This document shows, piece after piece, positions 1 to 51,863 of a stretch of DNA of 64,000 nucleotides. Position 1 is the first letter of the stretch; each line of letters starts with the position of its first letter. This stretch comes from an uncultured bacterium. GTDB taxonomy: Bacteria; CSSED10-310; CAZUFC01. The notes under the pieces were generated by a model. That model saw only the letters and a list, made by a program, of their open reading frames with translations. It was not told where the DNA came from and did not search any database. Both the position numbers and the translations under genes were made by a program. Where the stretch lies: contig CAZUFC010000021.1 of assembly GCA_964619725.1 (NCBI GenBank), forward strand, positions 1 to 64,000, written 5' to 3'.

Positions 1-184
1 AAAGTATAAGCGCCGCCCCTGCCTCGCAAATCCTTACCATCCATGTCTTAAGAAAGATTCGCCCGTTTATGGATCAAAAACCGCAGTGACTGTCCAGCAT
101 TAAATTTTGAATCGAGATTCGAGTTTATGGACAGACACTAACTCGTAAATTTTTGCCTTTCTCGTCTGAAAAATTCGGCTATCA

Positions 185-210
185 TGTAACTTTTTAAAGG
201 ATGAGAAGTT
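185..210 (+). promoter_or_regulatory. Candidate ECF-sigma-dependent (autoregulatory) promoter
   Basis: TGTAAC (185-190), 16-nt spacer, AGTT (207-210) just upstream of the ECF gene and its GAGGAG RBS; fits the general ECF AAC-n16-xGT pattern. Confidence 0.45.
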
Positions 211-229
211 TTACTAATGAGGAGCGGCG

Positions 230-784
230 ATGAAACTGGGCGATGAAGAATTAATGATAATGTTTAAGTCAGGAGCAGATGAAGCTTTCGATATGCTCTA
301 TGAAAGATACAAAGAGAGAATTTACCGGTTTGCTCTGACCTCGACCAGGAGCCGTGAAGAGGCTAAGGATGTGGTTCAGGACGTATTTATGCGAGTAATT
401 ATTTCCGCATCACGCTATCAATCCCGGGGAAGATTCAAAGAATGGATTTTTCAAATAGCGGGAAATCGAATCAGAACATTGATGAAAAAAAGGAGAGATG
501 AAAAAAGCGCCCGTCCAAACGGCAAAATTGACGTAACCACCCCAATGAACAGCGAACAAGGCAATCAACTGAAAAGAATGCTGCACCTGGAGCTTCTTGG
601 GGAATCATTGAGCTGCCTGTCGGATACTCAGAGGATGATTCTTCTTTTAAAAGAAGTTGAAGGCATGGATGTGCGCAGTATAGCGAACTGCCTGGATATG
701 TCGTCTGGAAACATCAGGGTTCATTTGCACAGGGGAAGAAAAAAAATGATCGATGTTTTGAATAACCTGGAGAAAAAGCAATGA
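230..784 (+). CDS. RNA polymerase sigma-70 factor, ECF subfamily
   Basis: Region 2 (AFDMLYERY..AKDVVQDVFMRV..FKEWIFQIAGN) and region 4 (LLLKEVEGMDVRSIANCL..IRVHLHRGRKK); RBS GAGGAG. Confidence 0.93.
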   Translation: MKLGDEELMIMFKSGADEAFDMLYERYKERIYRFALTSTRSREEAKDVVQDVFMRVIISASRYQSRGRFKEWIFQIAGNRIRTLMKKRRDEKSARPNGKIDVTTPMNSEQGNQLKRMLHLELLGESLSCLSDTQRMILLLKEVEGMDVRSIANCLDMSSGNIRVHLHRGRKKMIDVLNNLEKKQ

Positions 785-1308
785 GGGAAAAAGAGGATAG
801 AGAACATTGTAGGTTAATCCAGAGATATTTAGATAATGAGCTTGATGAAATTCAAGCTGATGGGTTTGAAAAACATATGAAAGCTTGCAGGAAATGCAGG
901 AAGCGATTTGAGTCGTTTAAGCAATTGTCTGAGAGGCTCCCTGAACTTTTTGATTGCAGGCTTCCTGATGAGGTAGACCTGGAGATAAGACGGAGATTGA
1001 ATGCCGCCCTGAGCCGGTGGTCAGAGAGGGACTCCGTATTAGACCTCGAAGGTGCGGCGCGCCTGTTAAGTTTACCGGTGACCGCTCTGGCGGATATGCT
1101 GGATGAACTGCCTGCTTTTGAGGTTAACGGTCGGATAAGGTTTCTCAGGGAGCGACTTCTTGAATGGGCACGAGAGCGTGAACGCAAGCTTATGATGGAG
1201 CGGGCGGCGCATACATTCGGTTCGGAGAAAAGGTTTTTCGTTATCGAAGGGGGAGCGGAAGAACCTGATGTCGACGCTCAGGAGAATGGAATTTTATGGA
1301 AAGGATGA
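781..1308 (+). CDS. Zinc anti-sigma factor (zf-HC2) fused to an excisionase-like HTH_17 domain
   Basis: N-terminal IQRYLDNEL..HMKACRKC (HxxxCxxC); C-terminal VLDLEGAARLL..LPAFEVNGRIRFLRERLLEW; no hydrophobic TM; ATGA overlap with the sigma gene. Confidence 0.8.
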   Translation: MREKEDREHCRLIQRYLDNELDEIQADGFEKHMKACRKCRKRFESFKQLSERLPELFDCRLPDEVDLEIRRRLNAALSRWSERDSVLDLEGAARLLSLPVTALADMLDELPAFEVNGRIRFLRERLLEWARERERKLMMERAAHTFGSEKRFFVIEGGAEEPDVDAQENGILWKG

Positions 1309-1312
1309 TGTA

Positions 1313-2884
1313 ATGAATAAAGAAGAATCAAGGGAATTCACGATTGAGCTTTTTGAAAGATTAGGAAGATTGTTGACTAACGGCGCTCCATTAGTGTCTG
1401 CGATGAGAGTTCTGATGAAGGAAAGGTTTACGGAGGGGAAGGCTTCTGAGCTGATGAATTTTATGACCGACAGTATAGAATACGGCAGAACTTTTTCTGA
1501 AGCTGCAGGCGCTGTAGGGATGTTCCCGGATGAGCTTCTGACGCTGCTGGCGAATGCGGAGGAGAAGGGGCGTCTGGATGAGGTTCTTTCATCAGTGACG
1601 GACTGCATAAGAAGCGGTGATTTCGCGGTAGGATTGCCCTTGAAAACGGCGAAAATCGCTGAAAAGGCGATATCGGATGAGAGTGAAAAGGCGCCTGATC
1701 TGGTAGAGGAAATTATACGAAAAGCGTTCGGCGCCGGGGCGACGGATTTACACATTGAGCCTGATGGAGCCGGGGCCGCTATCAGGTACAGAATCGACGG
1801 AAGGCTTCATCCGCGACCGGAGAGAGTAAAGGCAGGGATATTGCGAGCTGTCGTAAGCCGTATAAAGATAATGTCGGGTATGGACGCAGCGGAGAAAAAA
1901 CTTCCTCAATCCGGGAAAATAACAGTATCGAGAAGCGAATTGGGCGGCATGGATAAAGAAAAAGGAAAAATGCATCTAAGCGTATCGATTTGTCCTTTCT
2001 TTCATGGCGAAAAAGTCGTTATCAGGTTTCTGGATCAGAATGTGTTTCCGGACAGGCTTGAAAAGATAGGATTAACGGGCGATAAACTTAAATCAGCAAA
2101 AAACTTCATCGAACGTCCGGATGGATTGCTGGTGGTCACGGGGCCTTCAGGATCAGGCAAGACGACTACACTGCTGATGCTTCTAAGCGAGACGGCAAAG
2201 CAGCAAAACAGAAACGTAATATCCCTGGAAGAACCTGTGGAGGTTCTATTGCCGGGCGTCAATCAGATGCGGATAAATCCGTCGATTGGACTTACTTTTT
2301 CATCCGCCGGCCGTTCGATATTGCGTCAGGACCCTGACGTGATATGTATCGGGGAGGTCAGAGACCCGGAGACTGCCCTTCTGATAGCGAAAATCGTGCA
2401 AACGGGACATCTGGCATTGACTCAACTGCATGCCGGAGATTGCGTATCGGCTCTTAGGCTGCTGAAAGACCTCGGTGTTCCCGCTTATTTGTTAAATGGA
2501 ATGAATATGATGATTATAGCGCAGAGACTGGTGCGTAAACTGTGCGATAAGTGCAAGAAATCGCTGTCAGCAAATGAGCGGCAAGAATTACCGGAATATC
2601 TGAAAAATTCGGAAGCGACGTTTTACAAGCCTGTGGGATGCAAGCAATGCAATAATATTGGATTCAAGGGAAGAATTCCGCTGCATGAATTCCTCGAACC
2701 TGACAATGCACTGAAGTCGCTTCTGTCGCGAAACGCTGCGGCAGATGAAATGAGAAAATCACTTCCCGATAAACATCGCTTTCTTCTTGATGACGGGATC
2801 ACTGCGGTAATGAACGGTGTAACGACTCTCTCAGAAGTTATTTATGAAACCGGGGCATTGAGTCAGACCGCCGACCGCTCTTGA
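1313..2884 (+). CDS. GspE/PilB-family secretion ATPase with an N-terminal T2SSF (GspF/PilC cytoplasmic) domain
   Basis: Walker A GPSGSGKTT, SLEEPVE, Walker B DPDVICIGEVRD, TGH..LH, CxxC..CxxC; N-terminus LGRLLTNGAPLVSAM..GRTFSEA..FP..AEEKGRLDEVL. Start moved from 1268 to ATG 1313 (AAGGA RBS, no overlap with the upstream gene). Confidence 0.85.
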   Translation: MNKEESREFTIELFERLGRLLTNGAPLVSAMRVLMKERFTEGKASELMNFMTDSIEYGRTFSEAAGAVGMFPDELLTLLANAEEKGRLDEVLSSVTDCIRSGDFAVGLPLKTAKIAEKAISDESEKAPDLVEEIIRKAFGAGATDLHIEPDGAGAAIRYRIDGRLHPRPERVKAGILRAVVSRIKIMSGMDAAEKKLPQSGKITVSRSELGGMDKEKGKMHLSVSICPFFHGEKVVIRFLDQNVFPDRLEKIGLTGDKLKSAKNFIERPDGLLVVTGPSGSGKTTTLLMLLSETAKQQNRNVISLEEPVEVLLPGVNQMRINPSIGLTFSSAGRSILRQDPDVICIGEVRDPETALLIAKIVQTGHLALTQLHAGDCVSALRLLKDLGVPAYLLNGMNMMIIAQRLVRKLCDKCKKSLSANERQELPEYLKNSEATFYKPVGCKQCNNIGFKGRIPLHEFLEPDNALKSLLSRNAAADEMRKSLPDKHRFLLDDGITAVMNGVTTLSEVIYETGALSQTADRS

Positions 2885-3211
2885 TCAGATACGAAACAGA
2901 GCGGTTCGGGAAGGATAGTGAATTCACGGCAAACCCTCTTTTTCATATATTTCGGTCGGGCCGACCATGATTGAGGATAACTGCTTGCCGTCATTCTTTC
3001 GATGGTCTTATAAAGATCAGGCGGCGCCTGTCCATAAAGTCGTATGCAATTAAAATTCTGCTGCCGGACGGAGCAGCAGGAAAGATTCGCCGCTTACGGA
3101 CAGAGACCATTCAGGTATAATGCAGTCCGGGAACTTGAAAACAAGCAGGTTTTGAATTAAAATTTGTAATGTTGAAACGCCGCCGGAAGGCTTTCGACCT
3201 GACGATTACAT

Positions 3212-4852
3212 ATGATTGTCCGCCGACGAAATGAACGTGCAAGGGTAAAATATTTGGAATATGAAAGTAAATCAAAGGAAGAGTTGATATCCGATATCAG
3301 AGCGCTTATGAAGCGTCTGGAAACTTTTGAGTTATCGGCTCAGCTTTTCGGGCATCCAGATGATCCTTCCCTAAATGAAAGCGACCGGATGCAGGGATTA
3401 AACGGCATTCTTAACGCCATTAACGACGGCGTTTTCATATTGAATGAAAAGGGCGATTTTACTTTCATCAATGAGGTGATTGAAAAGCGTTCAGGGATTC
3501 CAGGCCGGGAATTTACTCAATTAAATTTCATGGATGTCGTGATTCCGGAAGAAAGGCCGAAGATAGAGGAAAAATTTAAACGGTTAATGGCCGGAGAAGA
3601 TGTGGGGCCGTACGATCTCACTTACAAGACCGTCAAGGGTGAGAATATGCTTGTCGAGATCAACTGCAAACAGCTTTACAGGAACGGCAGGATCGTGGGA
3701 ATGCTCGGAATTTCCCGCGACGTGACCGCAAAGCGCAGAGCCTTGAAAGCATTGAATCAGGAGCGTAAGCAATTGTTGTCGATCTTCGACAGTATAGACG
3801 AGCCGATTTATGTGAGCGATCCGCAGGATTTTGAGATACTTTATGCGAATAAGGCATTGCAGAAAGTGGTGGGCGATGCTGTCGGACGTAAATGCTATAA
3901 AGCGCTCCAGGGCCTGGATGCTCCATGTTCTTTCTGCACGAATAAATATATTTTCGGGGAAAACCGGAGCGAGGTATATATTTGGGAATTCCGGAATAAA
4001 ATCAATAACCGGTGGTATCACTGCATAGACAGGGCGATAAAGTGGCCGGACGGTCGTGAGGTGAGATACGAAATGGCGATCGACATAACGGACAGGGTAA
4101 CTGCAGAGGAGGAATTGTGTCGAGCTTACGAGCAGATGGAGGATAGGGTAAGGCAGAGGACGGAGGAGCTGGAAAATGCTGTAAAGGATTTAAAATCTTT
4201 CACTTACACGGTTTCCCACGATCTCCGGTCACCACTAAGAAGCATACACGGGTATTCGGAAATGCTTCTGCAGGACCATTCTGAAAAGCTTGACGGGAAA
4301 AGTGAAATTTATCTGACCCAGATAAATAATGAAGCAGTCAGAATGGGGCAGCTTATAGACGACCTGTTGACTTTTTCCAGGCTGGGCCGTCAGGAATTAA
4401 TCATGACGAATATCGATATGGATAAACTTCTGGAAATTGTTCTGAAAGAGACAACTCAGCATGCAAATACCAAAAATGCAATATTTGAATGCAGTAAATT
4501 GCCTCGCGCCTTAGGGGATCAGTCCCTGATAAGGCAGGTCCTGGTTAACCTGATTTCCAATGCTCTGAAGTTTTCCGGCAAGGAGCAGAAATCCATCATA
4601 AAAATTAAAGGTCATGCTGAACGGGATCAAAACGTTTATTCCGTTGAAGACAACGGTGTGGGATTCGACATGATATATGCGGATCGTTTGTTTCAAGTTT
4701 TCTATCGATTGCATCCTCAAACAGAGTTCGCGGGTACGGGCGTAGGACTGGCGATAATAAAAAGGATAATCGAAAAGCACAAAGGTCAGGTCTGGGCAGA
4801 GTCTGAACCGGGCAAAGGGGCCATTTTTTATTTTACTCTTCCGACTTTTTAA
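3212..4852 (+). CDS. Cytoplasmic PAS-PAS sensor histidine kinase
   Basis: Two PAS domains; H-box TVSHDLRSPL; NLISNALKF, DNGVGFD, GTGVGL boxes. The true start may be the TTG at 3254. Confidence 0.92.
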   Translation: MIVRRRNERARVKYLEYESKSKEELISDIRALMKRLETFELSAQLFGHPDDPSLNESDRMQGLNGILNAINDGVFILNEKGDFTFINEVIEKRSGIPGREFTQLNFMDVVIPEERPKIEEKFKRLMAGEDVGPYDLTYKTVKGENMLVEINCKQLYRNGRIVGMLGISRDVTAKRRALKALNQERKQLLSIFDSIDEPIYVSDPQDFEILYANKALQKVVGDAVGRKCYKALQGLDAPCSFCTNKYIFGENRSEVYIWEFRNKINNRWYHCIDRAIKWPDGREVRYEMAIDITDRVTAEEELCRAYEQMEDRVRQRTEELENAVKDLKSFTYTVSHDLRSPLRSIHGYSEMLLQDHSEKLDGKSEIYLTQINNEAVRMGQLIDDLLTFSRLGRQELIMTNIDMDKLLEIVLKETTQHANTKNAIFECSKLPRALGDQSLIRQVLVNLISNALKFSGKEQKSIIKIKGHAERDQNVYSVEDNGVGFDMIYADRLFQVFYRLHPQTEFAGTGVGLAIIKRIIEKHKGQVWAESEPGKGAIFYFTLPTF

Positions 4853-4982: not shown

Positions 4983-6134
4983 CTAGTCAGCGTCCCGAAG
5001 CGCCGGGATGGAGAAAACGAACCGACTTCCCTGTCCTTGAGGACCGTCTTCGACGTAAATGTATCCCCCGTGTGATTCTACGGCCATGCGGCAGAATGCC
5101 AGCCCGAGTCCTGCTCCTTTCCTGGCGCCTTTTCGTCCCGGCAGATGCGTAAACTTCTCGAATATCCTTTTTCTTTCGTCCGGAGGAACGCCAGGCCCTT
5201 TGTCCATTACGTGAAACTCGACGTAATCGTTTTTATCTGAGGCTTCAATGACGATATTTTCACCGGTCGGAGTATATTTTGCGGCATTGTCCAGCAGGTT
5301 GAACAGTATTCGTTGAAGTATTTCCTGATCGGCCTTAATGCGGGGCAGATTTTCCGGAATTTCAGTACGAACGGATATTTCATCGTCCTCCAGCAGTATT
5401 GACTCATCTTCGATGACCTGATCGATTATTTCTTTAACCGCGATAGGCTGAAGGTCCAAATGCATTTTCCCTTCTTCAAAGCGGGCCATCTGCAGGAGCG
5501 TCTCCACGAGCCTCAACATTCGTTTTACGGACCGTTCGATAGTTCCAAAGAGTTCATCAGTTTCGTCGGTTTGATTTTCCGAAGGCATCAGATGTTTGAG
5601 TATGGAAAGGCTGCCGGAAATCAAACCTAAAGGGTTCTTGAGATCATGCACGATCATGTCGGCCAGTTCTTCCCTTAGCCTCAGCATTTCTTTCAGACGT
5701 TCCTTTTCCGTATACAGGGCTTTTACTCGACCTTGAGCCAGCACGAAGGAGCGCCCCAGGCTTATACGCGATACGTCTGATTCTGAAAGTCGATCCATAA
5801 GGCGAAACACCAGGGTTATCGCTAGTTCGGGATTCTCATTTAGGGCTTTCCTGAACTGTTCCTTCGGCAGCATAAAGATGTTCGATTTTTCTTTCGCCAT
5901 AACGGTAATCGAACGTACGTGCCCCGGTCTGACCGCGGGTTCTCCGACGATTTCTCCCGGCATGATGTCGGAAAGGTAATGAAATGTGTTCTTCTCTTCC
6001 CGATACATCCCCAAACGGCCGCTTTCCAGGTAGTATATCGAATCGCCCATCGTTCCTTGTCGTATTATAACTTCACCGGGCGCTACGGTAAGGGATTTTC
6101 CGAATTTCTTGAGAGCTTGCGTGAATTTGTTCAT
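4983..6134 (-). CDS. cNMP-binding-domain histidine kinase
   Basis: N-terminal CNB (GEVIIRQG..PGEIVGE..RSITVMA); H-box VHDLKNPL; NLLDNAAKY, DKGPG, GAGLGLAFC. Confidence 0.9.
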   Translation of the reverse strand: MNKFTQALKKFGKSLTVAPGEVIIRQGTMGDSIYYLESGRLGMYREEKNTFHYLSDIMPGEIVGEPAVRPGHVRSITVMAKEKSNIFMLPKEQFRKALNENPELAITLVFRLMDRLSESDVSRISLGRSFVLAQGRVKALYTEKERLKEMLRLREELADMIVHDLKNPLGLISGSLSILKHLMPSENQTDETDELFGTIERSVKRMLRLVETLLQMARFEEGKMHLDLQPIAVKEIIDQVIEDESILLEDDEISVRTEIPENLPRIKADQEILQRILFNLLDNAAKYTPTGENIVIEASDKNDYVEFHVMDKGPGVPPDERKRIFEKFTHLPGRKGARKGAGLGLAFCRMAVESHGGYIYVEDGPQGQGSRFVFSIPALRDAD

Positions 6135-6628
6135 TTTTCTGATATGAATTTATCTTTCTTGACGCCGCATACCGGGCATACGTCCGGAAGATGACCATCC
6201 GCGATATAGCCGCACACGGTGCAGATATAATAGGTGGTTTCCGTTTCCTCCATCAGATGAGCCATAGCTTTTTTGTATAATTCGGCATGCACGTTTTCAA
6301 CGTCTCTGGCCTGAGCGAATATTATGCCTGCTTTAGAATCATTGGCTTCAGCGGCCAGTTTAATGAATTCATCATAGGCTACTCCCGCAATCTGGGTTTC
6401 AGCTTCGAAGCCCGATTCCAGGTTTTCCTCGGTACTTTTTATCGGCGCCAGCATCTTGTAGGTGCGTTCTCCGTGAATTTCTTCCGAACGCGCTATAGCT
6501 CTGAACAAACTCGCTATTTGAGGATAGCCTTCTTCGTCAGCCTTTTCCGCGAAAACTTTCAGCCTTAATGCGGCTTTGGCTTCTCCGACATAAGCATCAT
6601 AAAAAGCTTGTTTGAGATCATCTTTCAT
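6131..6628 (-). CDS. rbr: Rubrerythrin family protein
   Basis: Diiron motifs GEAKA..EEGYP..EEIH..ENVH and C-terminal rubredoxin CTVC..CPVC. Confidence 0.92.
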   Translation of the reverse strand: MKDDLKQAFYDAYVGEAKAALRLKVFAEKADEEGYPQIASLFRAIARSEEIHGERTYKMLAPIKSTEENLESGFEAETQIAGVAYDEFIKLAAEANDSKAGIIFAQARDVENVHAELYKKAMAHLMEETETTYYICTVCGYIADGHLPDVCPVCGVKKDKFISEK

Positions 6629-6710: not shown

Positions 6711-9700
6711 TCAGGATAAAACAGCCCTTTCCGAATTAATCGATTGATAAAGTTGTTTGAGATATTCAGCAGGTTCGCAATCCAGTTCCTTGCGCAGGAA
6801 TTCAGCGAATTGATGATAGGCGGCTACGGCAGCGGATGAATGACCTGATTGTGCATGAGCCTTCATTATGACGGCAACGACGTCGTCATTAAGGGGGTCG
6901 ATGTTGTGGATGAGTTCGGCGACTTTGAGAGCATCGTGCGTGAATCCGGCTTTAAGCGCTTTTTCAGCAAGCGTCAGTCCTGTGTTGGCGAATTCCAGGT
7001 TAAACCGGGTACGATAAGGTTCTATCCAGGATTCATATCTGTCTTCGGAGAGAAATTCTCCCTGGAACAGTTCGGCGGCGTCTTTAAATTTCCTGTAGCC
7101 GGAAACGGGGTCACCCTGTTCCAGAGCGCTTTTGACGGACTGGATTCTATTCTCGAACATGGTGTAATCGACTTTGGAATTTTCCGGCAGAAGAAAAGTG
7201 TAGTGGTGATCGCAGTTAAGGATATAGGGTGACTGAGCGTAACTGGAGAGTTTGGGCTGAAGGGCTCGCTTAATGTAATAAATGGCGTTTCTGAGTTTAT
7301 TGTAGCCCTGTTTCAGATCGGAATCCGGCCATATGATGTCAATAAGCACTTCTTTGTGAACAGGTTTTCTTCTGTTTATAAGCAGATACTTGAATATGCT
7401 CTTGGCCTTGGCGGTCACCCACATCGAATTTTCAATGGGCTTGTCTGAATCGCCGATCCATACCTGGAATTTCCCAAAACATTTTATCTTTAGCGGCTTA
7501 ATCGATTCAGCCCGGTCCCGGACTAAGATTTCGTTCGCTGCTTTTTTTACGGATGGGGCTCCTTCAGATGCTAAATGTCGTATCGCTGGATAGAGGTCAT
7601 CCAGTTTCCCCAGATTCTCCAACGCAGCAAGAGCCGCCTTTTGTATACGTTGATTTTTATGAGCCAATAGTTCGCTGAGGAACTTCCTGTTTTTCAACTG
7701 AAGAAGAAGACCGGCGGCATAATCCGTTTCAATGTCCTTCTCCAGGGCCCTGACCAGGATTAGGGAGCTTCGTGTGCCGGAACCGGCGGTGAATATGTGA
7801 TGAAAACCGTGCATGCGGGTTAGCTCAAGACATTTTTTCATGTATTTTTTCAGTCCAGGTTCGGCATTCTCATTCATACAATTCACGGCCAGGAGATAAT
7901 ATATTGATGCGACCATAAGATAGTTCTCTCGTTTTTTGAAAATATCGAGGCTTTGGAGCAGCCTTTTTTCTGTTTCCGCCGGATTTTTATGAAAATCTAT
8001 CGTTGTTCTGGCTTTGGCATAAAGGGCCATACCGAGGTATTCGTCATTTCCTGACTGTTCTGCTGAACGGAGATATTCATCAGCATAAAAAAGCGCCGAA
8101 GCTTCTTCTTTCGTATGTTTAAAGTAGTTCTGCATGCCTGACAGATAAAGGACTTTAGGGCGGGAGAAAGGCCTGGGGCTGAGACGCTTTTTCATCCGGT
8201 TCAGCAGCGAGAAAGCCTCGGCGGACATATTTTTTTTCAACGCGATAAGGACAAGCGAATAAAGCGATTCGAACCAATATGGTTTCGATCCGTATTTTAC
8301 AGCCAGTTCCAGGACTTTTTCGAATTTATTTTCAGCTTCGTTGAGTCTCCCCATATCGCGAAAAGCGACTCCTGCCGTTGAGAGGCAATCGCAGAGCATA
8401 TCGATACGGCCGAATTTTTCAAATATCGGCGCCAGAGATTCACATTGCCTTACGACGATTTCATTTTGTCCCGCTTCGGCATGACAGAGTTTGACGATAT
8501 CCATGGATGTTTTGGCATAGTCCAGTTTATCATTCGTTTGCAGGGCGAATTTCAGGTTTTTCTCCAGTATTCTTTTTTTATCCGAGATGCTGCAACCAGC
8601 GGCAGGGCATAGACATTGAAGCGTTTCGAGGAACAAGGAAGATTTGGTTACCTTATCGCCGGCGATTTCCAGCGCTTTACTGCACAATTCGGTCAGTTCA
8701 TCATATTGCAGAGTGTATTGATAAGAGTATCCTTTCAGGGCATAGGCGTTCAGCATACCTTCAACGTTGTTCTGATTTTTGAAAGTATCCAAAGCTCTAT
8801 CGATGAGTTTACGGGCTTGATCCAGATCGTCGTTCCGAATGAGCGCTCTGGCTTTTACAAGGAGAATATCCGGAAGACATTTCAAATTTTCCTCTGGAAG
8901 TTCAGCGCATATATTCTGCAGCCGGTTAATGCCGAAACATTTCAACTCATTGACGGAATAACCGTTAAAGACATCTGCAGCCTCAGAAAGCATACCGGCT
9001 TTAATAAAGTGCTCGGCGGAAAGAGACGGGTTCTTTTTTTTCCTGAACATCAGAGCCGCTTTCCGGTGCAGTTTTTGAACATGGGAATTTGAGGTTTGTT
9101 TTTTCAGGAGGTTATAAGCGTTTGTGCGCAAAAAGTCATGATAGCGATATTCAAGCGGCTGGGATGAAACTTTGAAAGTCAGGAGATTATTGTTTGCCAG
9201 TTGTTCCAGTAGATCATGGCTGTCGTTTCTGTTCAGTATTTCATTCAGCTCGTCAGGAATCAGAGGATCGAAAAGAGAAGAAGTGAGGACGAAATCTTTC
9301 AGATTCTGAGGAAATCCGTTGAATGTTTCTTCCAGAACATAGGAGGATATTTGCATTTCATCATTGCCTGGCAATAGGTTGTCCAGGTATTCCGACGGAT
9401 TGGAAATCGTTTCCATTCGTTCCAGCAGGAGCATAATCAGACCTGCGTATCCCCTGGAAATTTGATGGAGCCGGTTGGCTTTGAGCCTATGAGGTTGAGG
9501 GACATTTCTGAGTGAAAGCAGCATCTTTATGTCTGTTTTTGTGAGGATGAGGTCATTGTCGAATATTTCGTTCAACCATTGCCTGGATCGGTTTAGAGAA
9601 ATGTTCTTGAACGAAAAACTGCGTCTGTTGCTTATAATGAGGTGCCCGTCTGGGGGGAAAAGACCGACGATACGATCCATCAGTTCACTAATGCGTTCAT

Positions 9701-10211
9701 TGTTCTCGACTTTATGGAAATCTTCTATTACGAGCAGGAAAGAAGGCAATGAAGCGAGGATGTCCGCCAATAATCCGCCGATGAGTTCAATATTGTCTTC
9801 CAGGTTGAACATAGTGATCATGTAGCGGGATAAAACGTCCGAAGATAAGGGATTTTTTTGCCGCACGGCCTTAAGGATAAGATAAATGAAACGGAGAAGT
9901 TCATTATCTTTCTCGTCCAGGTTAATCCAGTAGATGTCTCTATCAATCGATCCGATCAGCCGGGTGAGGAAAACCGACTTACCGGCTCCTGCACCGGCGG
10001 AAATCAGCGTTGCTTTGCGGTGCAGATTCTTTAATATTTTTTCAGTCGGCTTCGGGCGCTCTATTACGTTTTTGAGAGAATCGATTGAGGGAGGTGAAAT
10101 TTTAGCGGCGGGAATGATGAAAAACTCTTTTTTTATCTGACCGGTTTGCATGAGAATCCCATTCTGCCTCACGTAGGCTTCAATATATGTATTATAAGCA
10201 TTTGGATTCAA
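6711..10211 (-). CDS. Large MalT-like STAND/TPR regulator with C-terminal SARP (wHTH + BTAD) domain
   Basis: IERP..AGAGAGKS P-loop, LVIEDFH, YRYHDFLR, TPR-like helices, then IKCFGKFQV..LIDIIWPD..LFQGEFL..W..DPLND..ELDCEP. Start may be ATG 10151. Confidence 0.88.
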   Translation of the reverse strand: MNPNAYNTYIEAYVRQNGILMQTGQIKKEFFIIPAAKISPPSIDSLKNVIERPKPTEKILKNLHRKATLISAGAGAGKSVFLTRLIGSIDRDIYWINLDEKDNELLRFIYLILKAVRQKNPLSSDVLSRYMITMFNLEDNIELIGGLLADILASLPSFLLVIEDFHKVENNERISELMDRIVGLFPPDGHLIISNRRSFSFKNISLNRSRQWLNEIFDNDLILTKTDIKMLLSLRNVPQPHRLKANRLHQISRGYAGLIMLLLERMETISNPSEYLDNLLPGNDEMQISSYVLEETFNGFPQNLKDFVLTSSLFDPLIPDELNEILNRNDSHDLLEQLANNNLLTFKVSSQPLEYRYHDFLRTNAYNLLKKQTSNSHVQKLHRKAALMFRKKKNPSLSAEHFIKAGMLSEAADVFNGYSVNELKCFGINRLQNICAELPEENLKCLPDILLVKARALIRNDDLDQARKLIDRALDTFKNQNNVEGMLNAYALKGYSYQYTLQYDELTELCSKALEIAGDKVTKSSLFLETLQCLCPAAGCSISDKKRILEKNLKFALQTNDKLDYAKTSMDIVKLCHAEAGQNEIVVRQCESLAPIFEKFGRIDMLCDCLSTAGVAFRDMGRLNEAENKFEKVLELAVKYGSKPYWFESLYSLVLIALKKNMSAEAFSLLNRMKKRLSPRPFSRPKVLYLSGMQNYFKHTKEEASALFYADEYLRSAEQSGNDEYLGMALYAKARTTIDFHKNPAETEKRLLQSLDIFKKRENYLMVASIYYLLAVNCMNENAEPGLKKYMKKCLELTRMHGFHHIFTAGSGTRSSLILVRALEKDIETDYAAGLLLQLKNRKFLSELLAHKNQRIQKAALAALENLGKLDDLYPAIRHLASEGAPSVKKAANEILVRDRAESIKPLKIKCFGKFQVWIGDSDKPIENSMWVTAKAKSIFKYLLINRRKPVHKEVLIDIIWPDSDLKQGYNKLRNAIYYIKRALQPKLSSYAQSPYILNCDHHYTFLLPENSKVDYTMFENRIQSVKSALEQGDPVSGYRKFKDAAELFQGEFLSEDRYESWIEPYRTRFNLEFANTGLTLAEKALKAGFTHDALKVAELIHNIDPLNDDVVAVIMKAHAQSGHSSAAVAAYHQFAEFLRKELDCEPAEYLKQLYQSINSERAVLS

Positions 10212-12593: not shown

Positions 12594-13299
12594 AATTGAT
12601 GAATTATTGAAATCAGTTGAAGGCGGACATGTGCTGGATGTTGCCGTCGGCAAGGGAGAGTTCATAGCTTACATAAAAAAATTTAAACGGCTGGAAAAAA
12701 TAACGGCAGTCGATCTGAGTGAAAAATGCGGCGAATTGCTCGATAAAAATTACCCGGAAACAGAGGTGAATTTCATCATCATGGATGCCGCTGTCTTGGG
12801 TTTTCCGGATGATACATTCGATACGGTCTGTTTTTCTAATTCTCTTCATCATCTTCCGAATGTCAGTTCGACCCTGCTGGAGCTGAAGCGCGTTCTCAAG
12901 AAGGGGGGAACTTTTATAGTCAGAGAAATGTATTCTGATTTTACGAGTGAAGCCCAAAAAACTCACGTCATGCTTCATCACTGGATCGCTGATGTAGATC
13001 GAAGGCACGGAAGAATTCACAATTACACCTTCAAAAAACGACGTATCCGCGATATGCTCCTCGCTATGAATTTTTCGGATGTAGAGATAATTGAATATGA
13101 TTCTACTTTCGATAATCCGAAAGATGAGAATATGATTTCTCAATTGACTGCATCATGCCGTGCGGTAATGAAAAACATTTCAGAGCAATTTCCGGTTTGC
13201 GAAGAACTGAAAGATCAGGGAAACCGGATCATTTCACGATTGAAAGCAAAGGTGAGCGGCATTGATGGTCGTTCGTCGACAAGGAAATCGGAAGCGTGA
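12586..13299 (+). CDS. Class I SAM-dependent methyltransferase
   Basis: VLDVAVGKG motif I, AVDLS, MDAAVLGFPDDTFDTV..SLHHL..RVLKKGG. Confidence 0.88.
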   Translation: MDKIDELLKSVEGGHVLDVAVGKGEFIAYIKKFKRLEKITAVDLSEKCGELLDKNYPETEVNFIIMDAAVLGFPDDTFDTVCFSNSLHHLPNVSSTLLELKRVLKKGGTFIVREMYSDFTSEAQKTHVMLHHWIADVDRRHGRIHNYTFKKRRIRDMLLAMNFSDVEIIEYDSTFDNPKDENMISQLTASCRAVMKNISEQFPVCEELKDQGNRIISRLKAKVSGIDGRSSTRKSEA

Positions 13300-13835
13300 T
13301 GAGCCGGTTGAAACAGAGAAAATTTAAAAAACTGATAAATCAGTACAAGGATTTGATTTTCAATCAGGCGTATTATGTTCTGGGCAATCATGCCGATGCC
13401 TGCGACATCAGTCAGGAAGTGATGCTCAAGTTCTGGCAGAATATGGACGATGTAAACAGGAAAGCCGTAAAAGTGTGGTTGATCAAAACAACAAAAAATG
13501 CCTGCATAGACCTGATAAGGAGAAACAAAGAATGGGCATCCCCCTCAGACAGGTTTGAAGAAGGGGGCGGCGGTCTCGGTCCGTTAAAGACTGATGAAAG
13601 CGCGAACCCGGAACGGTTGACTATAACGCAGGATTTGAAGAAACATCTTCATCGGGCCATAGGATTATTGCCGCCCAAGTTGAGAACGGCCATAGTATTG
13701 AGAGAGATACAGGATTTAAAATACGAGGAGATAGCTCAGGCGATGGAAGAGCCGGTCAACACCGTGAAAAGCCATATTCACCGCGGTAGAAAAATGCTTT
13801 TTGAGATGTTACAATATGAGAGAAGAGGGAGGTAA
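13296..13835 (+). CDS. RNA polymerase sigma-70 factor, ECF subfamily (SigW/RpoE-like)
   Basis: ACDISQEVMLK..WLIKTTKNACID; LREIQDLKYEEIA..VNTVKSHIHRGR. Confidence 0.92.
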   Translation: MMSRLKQRKFKKLINQYKDLIFNQAYYVLGNHADACDISQEVMLKFWQNMDDVNRKAVKVWLIKTTKNACIDLIRRNKEWASPSDRFEEGGGGLGPLKTDESANPERLTITQDLKKHLHRAIGLLPPKLRTAIVLREIQDLKYEEIAQAMEEPVNTVKSHIHRGRKMLFEMLQYERRGR

Positions 13836-13842
13836 GGCGGTG

Positions 13843-14388
13843 ATGATGCGAGATTGCGGACATATAAAAGATTTGTTTTTTAAGGACGATCTTTCGCAAA
13901 AAGAAAAAAGCGACTTGCAGCGACATCTGGAGGATTGCGCAGACTGCCGGGAACAGTATGAAGAATATCGCGTCATGATCGATTCGCTTCACGGCATGGA
14001 AGTAAAAAAATGTCCGGAAGAAGTTGCTGACAGGGCATTCAAAATAACTGCAGCCGAGAGTAAAAACCGGGAGGGAATCGGTTCAAAATTTGCCGACCTG
14101 CTCTCTTTTAATTCGAGGAACCTGTCGATGACTTTCTCTGCAATCGCGGCAATTCTGATAATCATTATGATTATTCCTGTCGTTAAGGACAGATACTTCA
14201 ACAAGCCTCCCTACACTCAAGAAGAACTGCATCAAGGAATTAAGCAGGTTAAAATGCTGTTGGGCTACATCAAGCATGTGAATCAGAAAGCCCAGGACAA
14301 ATTTGAGGAAAAAGCTCTGAAAGAGGGCATAGCAAAACCGATGAATTATTCCGCTAAAGCCCTGGACGATGTTTTCGAACCGGGATAA
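13843..14388 (+). CDS. Membrane-anchored zinc anti-sigma factor (zf-HC2)
   Basis: HLEDCADC motif, one TM (FSAIAAILIIIMIIPVV); start reset downstream of GGAGGT (GTG 13840 also possible). Confidence 0.85.
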   Translation: MMRDCGHIKDLFFKDDLSQKEKSDLQRHLEDCADCREQYEEYRVMIDSLHGMEVKKCPEEVADRAFKITAAESKNREGIGSKFADLLSFNSRNLSMTFSAIAAILIIIMIIPVVKDRYFNKPPYTQEELHQGIKQVKMLLGYIKHVNQKAQDKFEEKALKEGIAKPMNYSAKALDDVFEPG

Positions 14389-51122: not shown

Positions 51123-51863
51123 TCACATCGGCGCCGACGGCAAATCGAAGGTCGAAAAATTCCACGGCGGCCAGGGCGTCGTGATCACGAAGGACCTTAT
51201 TCCCTTCGACTTGAATTCCTGCTCCAGCGATTCTACGAAATTTTGAGCATCCTGCTTCCGGCATAATATGTTTATATTCCCCATTACCTGACCGCCGGAC
51301 TTCGAAAAATCCCAGTTGAAATCAACCAGCTTTCCGTTGCCCGCCTTCCGGATTACAGGCAACAAATTCTTTAATCCCGAATCGCTGCCTGATTCCCTCC
51401 CTTCATGTGACTTCAAATATAAAGTCCCGGGACCGAATCTCAATGATATGTCGCGGGATGATGAGGAATCCGCAAATAAAAATGAATCCCCGTTCATACG
51501 GCCTAAACGTATCTTTATCCCGAACTCCACCATGCCGTGCAAACGGTCCAGACTCTCCTGGATTATCTCGCTCTGATGCTTCAACGTCTCACGCAATGAA
51601 GACGATGAACCGAATTTTAATCCGAATCGTACCGGTATCATCTCGTTCGTCTGATTAAATATCTCTCGAACAACTCGATGATGCTGAAACTCCGCCATCG
51701 AATTATCCGGGTCCAACTCCTCCTCGGTATGCTCGGAAACAATCGCCTGAAAACGGTCAACTGATACTGATACTACTCGCCTGTTCGCTATACCCGTTAT
51801 TGCGCCGTTTTTCATCGGAAATGCTCGCGTTATCCCGTAAAGGTGTATCCATAGCCCGCCCAT
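51123..51863 (-). CDS. GvpL/GvpF-family protein
   Basis: LYGIT..GI..AIVSE..HHRVV..IPVRFG..L.G.VEFGIK..GTLYL..PWPPWNF. Confidence 0.82.
   Translation of the reverse strand: MGGLWIHLYGITRAFPMKNGAITGIANRRVVSVSVDRFQAIVSEHTEEELDPDNSMAEFQHHRVVREIFNQTNEMIPVRFGLKFGSSSSLRETLKHQSEIIQESLDRLHGMVEFGIKIRLGRMNGDSFLFADSSSSRDISLRFGPGTLYLKSHEGRESGSDSGLKNLLPVIRKAGNGKLVDFNWDFSKSGGQVMGNINILCRKQDAQNFVESLEQEFKSKGIRSFVITTPWPPWNFSTFDLPSAPM

Follow-up and report, generated by a model that had tools for sequence, protein, structure and literature searches.

We describe a gene at positions 1313 to 2884 of the window, by which we mean the 64,000-nucleotide stretch that makes up the first 64 kb of contig CAZUFC010000021.1 (C21), from a metagenome-assembled genome (MAG) of the bacterial phylum CSSED10-310. 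The product joins a cytoplasmic domain of PilC/GspF, the platform protein of type IV pili (T4P) and type II secretion systems (T2SS), to a motor ATPase of the GspE/PilB type. Judged from sequence comparisons, this fusion of platform domain and motor is genuine and conserved, and phylogenetic analysis of the ATPase identifies it as a member of a single-origin subfamily of GspE/PilB-type ATPases in which one to three membrane-free bundles replace the N1/MshEN domain. An earlier reading of the gene (the initial annotation) had proposed a GspE-GspF-type fusion replacing the usual N-terminal domain, and we find that architecture conserved in two phyla and in dozens of metagenomic clusters. The fusion is encoded behind an extracytoplasmic function (ECF) sigma factor and a putative anti-sigma protein, and this setting suggests that a motor protein was drafted into a cassette for gene control.

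The fusion gene and its N-terminal domain

The source MAG comprises 9.17 Mb in 344 contigs and is 90.9% complete with 6.5% contamination. The open frame runs from 1268 to 2884 on the + strand, and its coding part from the ATG at 1313 specifies 523 amino acids plus a stop. A ribosome-binding site, GGAAAGGA, lies ahead of this ATG and the N-termini of homologues align with the same start, so that 1313-2884, the coordinates of the initial annotation, is likely to be the gene. No + strand terminator was found 3' of position 2884, and scans for sigma-70 promoters and terminators stayed at chance level. Public databases give the fusion proteins generic names, such as "ATPase, T2SS/T4P/T4SS family" or "TadA". 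The gene can be divided as follows.

1313..2884, + strand: fusion gene, T2SSF-type bundle plus GspE/PilB-type ATPase (Pfam, structure model)
1313..1612, + strand: N-domain, residues 1-100, six-helix PilC/GspF cytoplasmic bundle (Pfam, profile, Foldseek)
1613..1681, + strand: linker, residues 101-123 (23 residues), mean pLDDT 67 over residues 111-120
1682..2032, + strand: N2D of the ATPase, residues 124-240, with the private changes D200S, R202K and R223S (model, alignment)
2033..2881, + strand: C-terminal ATPase domain (CTD), residues 241-523, holding E307 of the Asp box, Walker B and the His box (motifs, Foldseek)
2141..2167, + strand: Walker A, in the CTD
2543..2650, + strand: tetra-Cys motif, in the CTD

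The Pfam family T2SSF (PF00482) matches residues 15-99 with 43.0 bits, where the cut-off is 25.2, and an E of 5.3e-11, covering positions 3-88 of the 125 in the profile. The match stops where the transmembrane part of the family starts, and a crude hydropathy scan found no transmembrane segment in the fusion protein. When a profile built from seven N-domains was searched against PDB chains, it matched both repeats of M. xanthus PilC (E 3.3e-24), EpsF (E 7.6e-12), T. thermophilus PilC (E 3.5e-11), a GspF chain, 5nbg, titled OutF of D. dadantii (E 5.5e-9) and TcpE (E 5.6e-4), and nothing else of note. An AlphaFold model of residues 1-128 (pLDDT 86.6) has six helices across residues 3-100; in a Foldseek search with this model the ranks down to 12 were all cytoplasmic domains of OutF, TcpE, EpsF and PilC, with TM-scores by target of up to 0.82, and the next match had an E of 0.38. 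The initial annotation had described the first 100 or so residues as a T2SSF bundle ending before any transmembrane segment, and on this Pfam, the PDB profile search and AlphaFold/Foldseek agree. A homologue search restricted to residues 1-125 returned the query protein itself only.

The fusion protein shares with PilC/GspF proteins (EpsF, OutF, TcpE) the cytoplasmic six-helix bundle, which lies within a root-mean-square deviation (rmsd) of 1.5-2.0 Å of the OutF, TcpE and PilC domains for compact matches, and the AE..G.LD motif, the most conserved of the T2SSF family, is kept (E83, G86, L88, D89). It differs from them in having one bundle rather than two bundle-and-membrane repeats, in lacking transmembrane helices and in being covalently joined to an ATPase; with no transmembrane helices and a single repeat it is not a platform protein. 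Hidden Markov models (HMMs) of the two PilC repeats, made from only nine sequences, give the window N-domain 25.8 bits for repeat 1 versus 30.3 bits for repeat 2, while 24 of the 34 single N-domains of the clade described below favour repeat 1, opposite to the window.

The ATPase domain

Residues 127-510 match T2SSE (PF00437) over profile positions 8-369 of 370 (326.7 bits), and the HMM scan for T2SSF and T2SSE that the initial annotation had recommended therefore finds both families. In a model of the full-length protein (pLDDT 87.5, pTM 0.72) the ATPase part resembles PilB, PilF and GspE (Foldseek TM-score by target 0.83-0.88, rmsd about 3 Å). Its sequence is 35-37% identical to G. metallireducens PilB, G. 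sulfurreducens PilB and T. thermophilus PilF, and it matches EpsE with an E of 1.7e-80.

The PilB/GspE proteins (PulE, EpsE, PilF) and the fusion have in common the N2D and CTD fold, Walker A and B, the Asp box, the His box and the tetra-Cys motif. Walker A reads GPSGSGKTT (residues 277-285), Walker B reads RQDPDVICIGEVR, with GEVR, and the His box reads TGHLALTQLH with both histidines intact. The four cysteines (C411, C414, C443, C446) are invariant in 13 of 13 close relatives and in all 54 clade rows of the tree discussed below. Walker A, Walker B and tetra-Cys, which the initial annotation had called intact, are all present. It had also called the Asp and His boxes slightly altered, and these two alterations differ in nature: in the Asp box, LEEPVE, the E for D at 307 is private to the window protein among the 13 close relatives, but the Q of TQLH is invariant across those 13 and so marks the subfamily as a whole.

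Beyond what had been annotated, N2D carries three private changes, two of them in the PQDGR motif (D200S, R202K) and one in the DxRVS motif (R223S). We take R202 and R223 to be arginine fingers, as in EpsE and PilT. All 46 canonical single ATPases and the 12 other close relatives have R223; R202 deviates in eight of the 46. The window protein thus has neither N2D arginine (R202K, R223S). Counting positions on which 11 or more of the 12 other relatives agree, it has 18 private deviations and is the most derived of the 13. Since two N2D arginines and two aspartates are substituted, the window copy may bind nucleotide yet hydrolyse it poorly.

Pfam finds no N1/MshEN domain (PF05157), which serves extension ATPases in docking or in binding c-di-GMP, in the fusion protein, T2SSF standing in its place; PF05157 is carried by most canonical matches of our first database search. 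The best NCBIfam matches are GspE (366.9 bits, cut-off 630.25) and PilB (340.9 bits, cut-off 675.65), both far below equivalog level. On these profiles and motifs the ATPase is a clear T2SSE member of the extension type, but it departs from GspE and PilB proper in several respects: the subfamily has a platform-type bundle for N1/MshEN, forms a separate clade, has Q for T in the His box and is not encoded with a platform, pilins, a secretin or PilMNO, and the window copy lacks R223.

Distribution and origin of the fusion

PF00482 and PF00437 occur together in 10 of the best 120 matches of that first search, the query included; nine of these proteins are 503-538 residues long and one has 615. 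A full-length fusion match is present in seven of the 14 genomes (species) of the phylum and in none of 27 other genomes of a first sample. We then took the best 150 matches of a profile search of 1.84 billion cluster representatives (50% identity). By a local N-domain HMM, 49 of these carry the N-domain, 29 of them singly, 19 doubly and one triply. One double form is labelled Planctomycetota by NCBI, and two close relatives are labelled candidate division CSSED10-310. Among 151 sampled Planctomycetota genomes, three have the double-domain fusion, and a more distant single-domain branch shows 31-36% identity. The domain-architecture search that the initial annotation had suggested thus recovers the fusion in seven phylum genomes, in one genome outside the phylum (G255, described below) and in those 49 representatives.

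The ATPase domain alone was used for a FastTree phylogeny of 132 rows, of which 54 came from N-domain proteins, 32 from the halves of tandem ATPases and 46 from canonical proteins. All but one of the N-domain rows (53 of 54) form one clade with support 99 that contains no row of any other kind, hence no plain PilB or GspE; the remaining one, P0160, falls just outside it. The window protein belongs to a 13-row subclade, also with support 99. The fusion ATPase domains are about 40% identical to the resident PilBs.

Could the gene be an artefact, whether an assembly chimera, two genes joined by a frameshift or the scar left by a recent deletion within a pilC-pilB region? The window begins at a contig end, a repeat of high copy number sits 45 bp ahead of the promoter motif of the operon, and two low-depth independent assemblies, X2 and X3, leave nucleotides 1413-1816 uncovered. 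On the other side, a 10.7 kb contig of run X1, which may be the source sample, spans 999-3100, junction included, with zero differences, and the same architecture occurs in the phylum genomes, the other-phylum genome, the three Planctomycetota and the 49 representatives. Canonical operons encode the ATPase first and the platform second, whereas the fusion has the platform domain before the ATPase, and with the order reversed it is not a read-through of neighbouring genes. A chimera is excluded by the conservation of the junction across genomes, not by read support, and we regard the probability of any such artefact as negligible. The initial annotation would have given up its reading if the N-terminus did not score as T2SSF, or if the junction were a chimera or scar absent from homologues; T2SSF does score at the N-terminus, and homologues share the junction.

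Several other matches were considered and set aside. A profile search of the genome contigs with the family alignment gave at least 79 loci of ordinary PilB/GspE, all but one of those listed being judged by query range alone. One of the loci, L061, matches over query positions 14-510, near the N-terminus, and was judged ordinary from its match range alone. Another, L042, looked like a full-length fusion match and turned out on opening to be an adjacent gspE-gspF pair. A search of metagenome contigs with P0154 gave 12 loci; six of these were opened, and they hold plain ATPase genes or pilB(-pilT)-pilC operons of the canonical kind, with no fusion.

Some proteins in the sample have more elaborate arrangements. 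P0152 (768 residues), a member of the fusion clade, begins with a stretch that looks Clp_N-like by eye, then has two bundles, then the ATPase. P0122 (1047 residues), likewise of the fusion clade, has two bundles, an ATPase whose Walker A reads GSGTTT, with the lysine lost, and a second, intact ATPase. P0125-P0139, and also P0008-P0010, are proteins of about 830-1020 residues with two tandem GspE/PilB-type ATPases per chain that form a well-supported clade; in these tandem-ATPase rows the Walker B aspartates D340 and D342 deviate in 12 and 14 of 32, respectively.

A sigma/anti-sigma operon

The fusion gene follows two short genes on the same strand.

185..214, + strand: putative ECF-type promoter motif, TGTAAC-N17-GTTTTAC, ending 15 nt ahead of the sigma ATG
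230..784, + strand: ECF sigma factor, 184 residues (Sigma70_r2 E 2.5e-15, Sigma70_r4_2 E 1.3e-12, Sigma70_ECF E 1.5e-6)
781..1308, + strand: soluble anti-sigma-like protein, 175 residues (zf-HC2 29.8 bits, cut-off 22.2)
808..897, + strand: ZAS motif of the anti-sigma-like protein, C10 and H32-x3-C36-x2-C39
1033..1179, + strand: winged-helix HTH_17-like domain, residues 85-133 of the anti-sigma-like protein

The sigma protein has regions 2 and 4 only, and the protein encoded next to it carries H-x3-C-x2-C, as in ECF/ZAS pairs. The NCBIfam sigma70-ECF superfamily is matched at 94.7 bits (cut-off 42.9), and no equivalog is reached. The sigma stop overlaps the next start in the ATGA at 781-784. 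No hydrophobic stretch was seen by eye in the translation of the anti-sigma-like protein, and C10, H32, C36, C39 and the pattern LD..P.....G..RF.R.....W are invariant in seven of seven such sequences.

The order sigma, anti-sigma-like protein, fusion, with overlapping or near-touching junctions, is found in the window and at all six other phylum loci. A full-length match to the anti-sigma protein with its winged helix (anti-sigma-wHTH, E <= 1e-65) occurs in exactly the seven phylum genomes that bear the fusion, once in each and always adjacent to it; in the seven without the fusion there is no such match, only partial ZAS matches with E >= 1e-9. The anti-sigma profile was also run on a set of 401 genomes that included 387 from beyond the phylum, and among these a single case appeared. 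This is locus L170 of G255, a genome of 1.6 Mb, where an ECF sigma gene, a gene for a 127-residue HTH_17 protein without the ZAS motif and a gene for a 504-residue T2SSF+T2SSE fusion follow one another with overlapping junctions, next to mreB, mreC, mreD and a penicillin-binding-protein-like (PBP2) gene (named from their translations). In all eight single-domain genomes examined, the fusion gene therefore comes third, translationally coupled to the preceding genes for an ECF sigma factor and an HTH_17 protein.

An HTH_17 protein is also encoded directly upstream of the double-domain fusion at one of the three Planctomycetota loci. Compared with the anti-sigma profile by hhalign, that neighbour is similar over the 49-column winged helix only (probability 53%). 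Being kept in G255 without the ZAS motif, and at this Planctomycetota locus, the winged helix is the fusion's most constant companion. A 109-member ESM Atlas cluster, commonest in Planctomycetota, has zf-HC2 in 67% and HTH_17 in 47% of its members.

Cytoplasmic ZAS anti-sigma systems such as SigR-RsrA of S. coelicolor and SigE-ChrR of R. sphaeroides, in which ChrR has an extra C-terminal domain, offer the nearest comparison. Like them, the operon encodes a soluble C...H-x3-C-x2-C protein beside an ECF sigma gene and is probably autoregulated from an ECF-type promoter, and the anti-sigma-like protein has a weak NCBIfam match to the RsrA family (E 2.2e-4, 21.2 bits, cut-off 62.5). Unlike them, its extra domain is an excisionase/MerR-like winged helix (HTH_17), and a secretion-type ATPase is encoded by an obligatory third gene.

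Two further observations concern sigma genes and neighbours of the fusion elsewhere. The window holds a second ECF sigma gene (Sigma70_r2 + r4_2) at 13296-13835 (+), overlapped by a 195-residue open reading frame (ORF) at 13801-14388 (+) whose N-terminus gives a weak ZAS-type match to the anti-sigma profile (E 1.5e-6); by their sequences the two genes at 13296-14388 resemble a conventional sigma/anti-sigma pair that has no ATPase. At two of the three Planctomycetota loci an AAA_14 + DUF4143 gene stands directly downstream of the double-bundle fusion (L145 4686-5861 (-), L147 4826-6256 (-)), and in one of these two an ECF sigma gene stands two genes downstream of the fusion. The AAA_14/DUF4143 gene may be a second recurring neighbour of the double-bundle form.

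A putative promoter motif

All seven phylum loci have TGTAAC, a spacer of 17-18 nt and GTTTTAC or a one- or two-base variant of it, ending 15-26 nt before the start codon, and G255 has TGAAAC-N18-GTTTAAC, 14 nt before the start. TGTAAC is a typical ECF -35 element, and we interpret the motif as a putative promoter. Alternatively, it could be an imperfect inverted repeat and putative operator for the winged-helix domain, as locus L039 reads TGTAAC...GTTACA.

The strict promoter pattern has one match in the 9.17 Mb genome, the operon's own site. With up to one mismatch there are 22 matches in that genome versus 23 in a reversed control, which is no enrichment, and counts for a looser pattern in five related genomes are not above control. 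As its own site is the sole recognisable copy, the operon looks autoregulated without a further visible regulon.

Absence of a linked machine

None of the 34 neighbouring ORFs at six phylum loci encodes a pilin, secretin, platform protein, PilMNO or prepilin peptidase, and no pilus or T2SS genes are found among 37 further ORFs of the window. Taking the window, the six phylum loci, the three Planctomycetota loci and G255 together, pilus or T2SS genes stand beside the fusion at none of 11 loci. The genes beyond the three-gene operon differ from locus to locus. Because the ECF sigma/anti-sigma operon is the constant element, the context, which the initial annotation had not taken up, points to gene regulation and not to a secretion machine.

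There are nevertheless two ways in which the ATPase might still serve a machine. In the first, the sigma/anti-sigma pair only switches the ATPase on, and the ATPase is an alternative or accessory motor on a resident T4P or T2SS platform; its PilC-like bundle would pair with the platform's cytoplasmic bundles in place of the N1-PilM/GspL contact, and the ZAS sensor would possibly be thiol- or redox-sensitive. The crystal structures of the EpsF and PilC cytoplasmic domains are dimers. Candidate machines are many, as the genome holds 17 T2SSF and 27 T2SSE matches; the N-domain retains AE..G.LD; and with the operon as the only detectable promoter target, the ATPase is the only non-regulatory product. 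Set against this, the fusion is never encoded with a machine component at the loci examined, the best resident PilC scores only 52.7 bits against the N-domain, so that no resident PilC is closely related to it, and the strict co-occurrence of the winged-helix anti-sigma protein with the ATPase would be needless for a mere output. We consider such a sigma-controlled effector, the chief rival of the switch proposed below, possible but on the unlikely side.

In the second, the ATPase is the motor of an unrecognised filament or transport machine whose other parts lie elsewhere and are too divergent to be noticed. The genome does have orphan T2SSF-type and T2SSE-type genes, and the ATPase is of the extension type, with GspE and PilB as its best NCBIfam matches. 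However, no co-occurring partner was found, the small genome of G255 again has no machine genes where its operon adjoins mreBCD and PBP2, and the fixed sigma and winged-helix context would be left unexplained. This we judge improbable.

A partner for either model was sought in an orphan gene for a 333-residue platform-type T2SSF protein on another contig, C12, which has no ATPase on its contig and is followed by a gene for a 436-residue protein with a C-terminal FHA/YscD-like domain (both genes within C12:20454-22780; L161 4455-6778). Across the 14 phylum genomes, relatives of this platform-type gene and the fusion do not occur together, and we rejected it as the partner; that it does not track the fusion counts against both models.

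For the remainder of the window we note the following. Downstream of the operon are genes for a PAS-PAS histidine kinase (3212-4852 (+)), a cNMP-binding histidine kinase (4983-6134 (-)), a rubrerythrin (6131-6628 (-)) and a 1166-residue TPR/BTAD (SARP-like) regulator (6711-10211 (-)), a cluster of signalling and redox genes that is not conserved beside the operon elsewhere. A GvpL/GvpF homologue lies at 51123-51863 (-) (E 1.9e-26), with no other gas-vesicle genes among the scanned ORFs of the window. Near the contig end is the intergenic repeat TTAAATTTTGAATCGAGATTCGAGTTTATGGACAGACACTAAC (positions 100-142 (+) of the window; a half-copy related to it stands at about 64-98), the repeat mentioned above as lying upstream of the promoter motif. 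It has 241 copies in the genome at up to five substitutions, some in tandem about 80 bp apart, and is REP/MITE-like; summed contig depth over it is about 1474, compared with about 10 in the flanks.

Erosion of catalytic residues

We tabulated 13 catalytic or nucleotide-contact positions in the 54 clade rows and the 46 canonical single ATPases.

N-domain clade, 54 rows: at least one deviation in 31, at least two in 22
Canonical single ATPases, 46 rows: at least one deviation in 13, at least two in 2
K283: deviates in 4 of 54 clade rows and 0 of 46 canonical rows
E348: deviates in 5 of 54 clade rows and 0 of 46 canonical rows
H366: deviates in 5 of 54 clade rows and 0 of 46 canonical rows
H373: deviates in 4 of 54 clade rows and 0 of 46 canonical rows

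The canonical deviations are almost all at R202. Loss of hydrolysis is thus accepted in the clade much more frequently than among pilus motors, which we count in favour of the switch proposed below, and the repeated loss of core catalytic residues in the clade counts against an effector motor. Within the sigma-linked 13-member subclade, on the other hand, 10 keep all 13 sites (the window protein has four changes, P0138 two and P0012 one), which, like the retention of tetra-Cys throughout the clade, is what an effector motor would call for.

The initial annotation had also raised a decoy or dominant-negative motor, that is, a subunit that poisons PilB/GspE hexamers or sits idly on the PilC-binding site. 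The window copy's D200S, R202K, R223S and D307E, at otherwise conserved nucleotide-contact positions, would fit such a role, as would the clade members that lack the Walker A lysine or the catalytic glutamate. But in the window copy Walker A, Walker B, the zinc site and the two histidines of the His box are intact, the fully canonical sites of 10 of the 13 relatives would be needless for a pure decoy, and the ATPase domains form an old clade of their own, so distant from the resident PilBs that mixed hexamers are not obviously favoured. With no genomic link to any machine at the 11 loci, the context lends the proposal no support, and we think it very improbable.

A possible sigma switch

The interpretation that we favour, tentatively and at something short of an even chance, is that the trio forms a cytoplasmic sigma switch in which a self-engaged ATPase acts on the anti-sigma protein. 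The anti-sigma protein would hold the sigma factor through its N-terminal ZAS domain, and its winged helix would be the handle for the ATPase. The ATPase ring would carry its own platform-like bundle on the N2D face, engaged in cis. By binding or hydrolysing nucleotide, the ATPase would bind or remodel the anti-sigma protein and so set the level of free sigma, and sigma thus set free would act on the operon's own promoter and amplify its expression.

PilB-type rings face PilC with their N2D side. The bundle, which a 23-residue linker of non-conserved sequence joins to N2D, is therefore in a position to engage its own ring, and the retained AE..G.LD motif points to continued use of the original contact surface. 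The auto-engaged motor of the initial annotation is possible in this putative sense. A more specific version, in which a secretion or pilus motor has become a mechanical anti-anti-sigma factor, with ATP-driven movement of the bundle pulling the winged-helix anti-sigma protein off the ECF sigma, is more doubtful, and we would not call it likely.

Several points count against the switch or limit what underlies it. The seven phylum genomes are kin and not independent, which leaves G255 as one independent case in 387. The HTH_17 match in the window protein, at 19.4 bits, is under the cut-off of 27, although the domain scores over it in L035 and L036. With no visible regulon, the ATPase might be nothing more than a product under the sigma factor's control, and since 10 of the 13 subclade members are canonical, most look like working ATPases and would equally fit an effector motor. 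The tree was made with FastTree only, and its rows were drawn from matches to a profile that included the N-domain.

Implications

The variable N-terminal region of PilB-type ATPases is a place where regulatory inputs are received, as in PilZ-FimX, c-di-GMP sensing by MshE and the PATAN response regulators. Those regulators act on a pilus motor within its machine, whereas in the present case the motor-like protein as such has apparently been transferred to a cassette for transcription control. The recurrent catalytic erosion hints at re-use of the fold for signalling.

An abstract-level literature search found no paper on a T2SSF+T2SSE fusion architecture or on a sigma/anti-sigma/ATPase cassette. 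A term search of the main text of the ECF classification (PMC7826278) returned nothing on type II secretion, pili or HTH_17, and the part of its supplement that was covered has no T2SSE match, while the remainder could hold a relevant ECF group. The occurrence of the three-gene cassette in at least two phyla suggests either a mode of sigma regulation or a sigma-controlled soluble motor that is not in that classification as far as it was searched.

We know of no high-resolution structure of a PilB/GspE ring on a PilC/GspF platform. A soluble protein of about 520 residues in which bundle and ATPase are tethered, available also in versions with two and three bundles, is attractive for electron cryomicroscopy and biochemistry, and if the self-engaged arrangement is true it would be a natural covalent PilB-PilC assembly for solving the interface between motor and platform. 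A mechanical anti-anti-sigma factor, if that is what the ATPase is, would be a new class of sigma-factor control.

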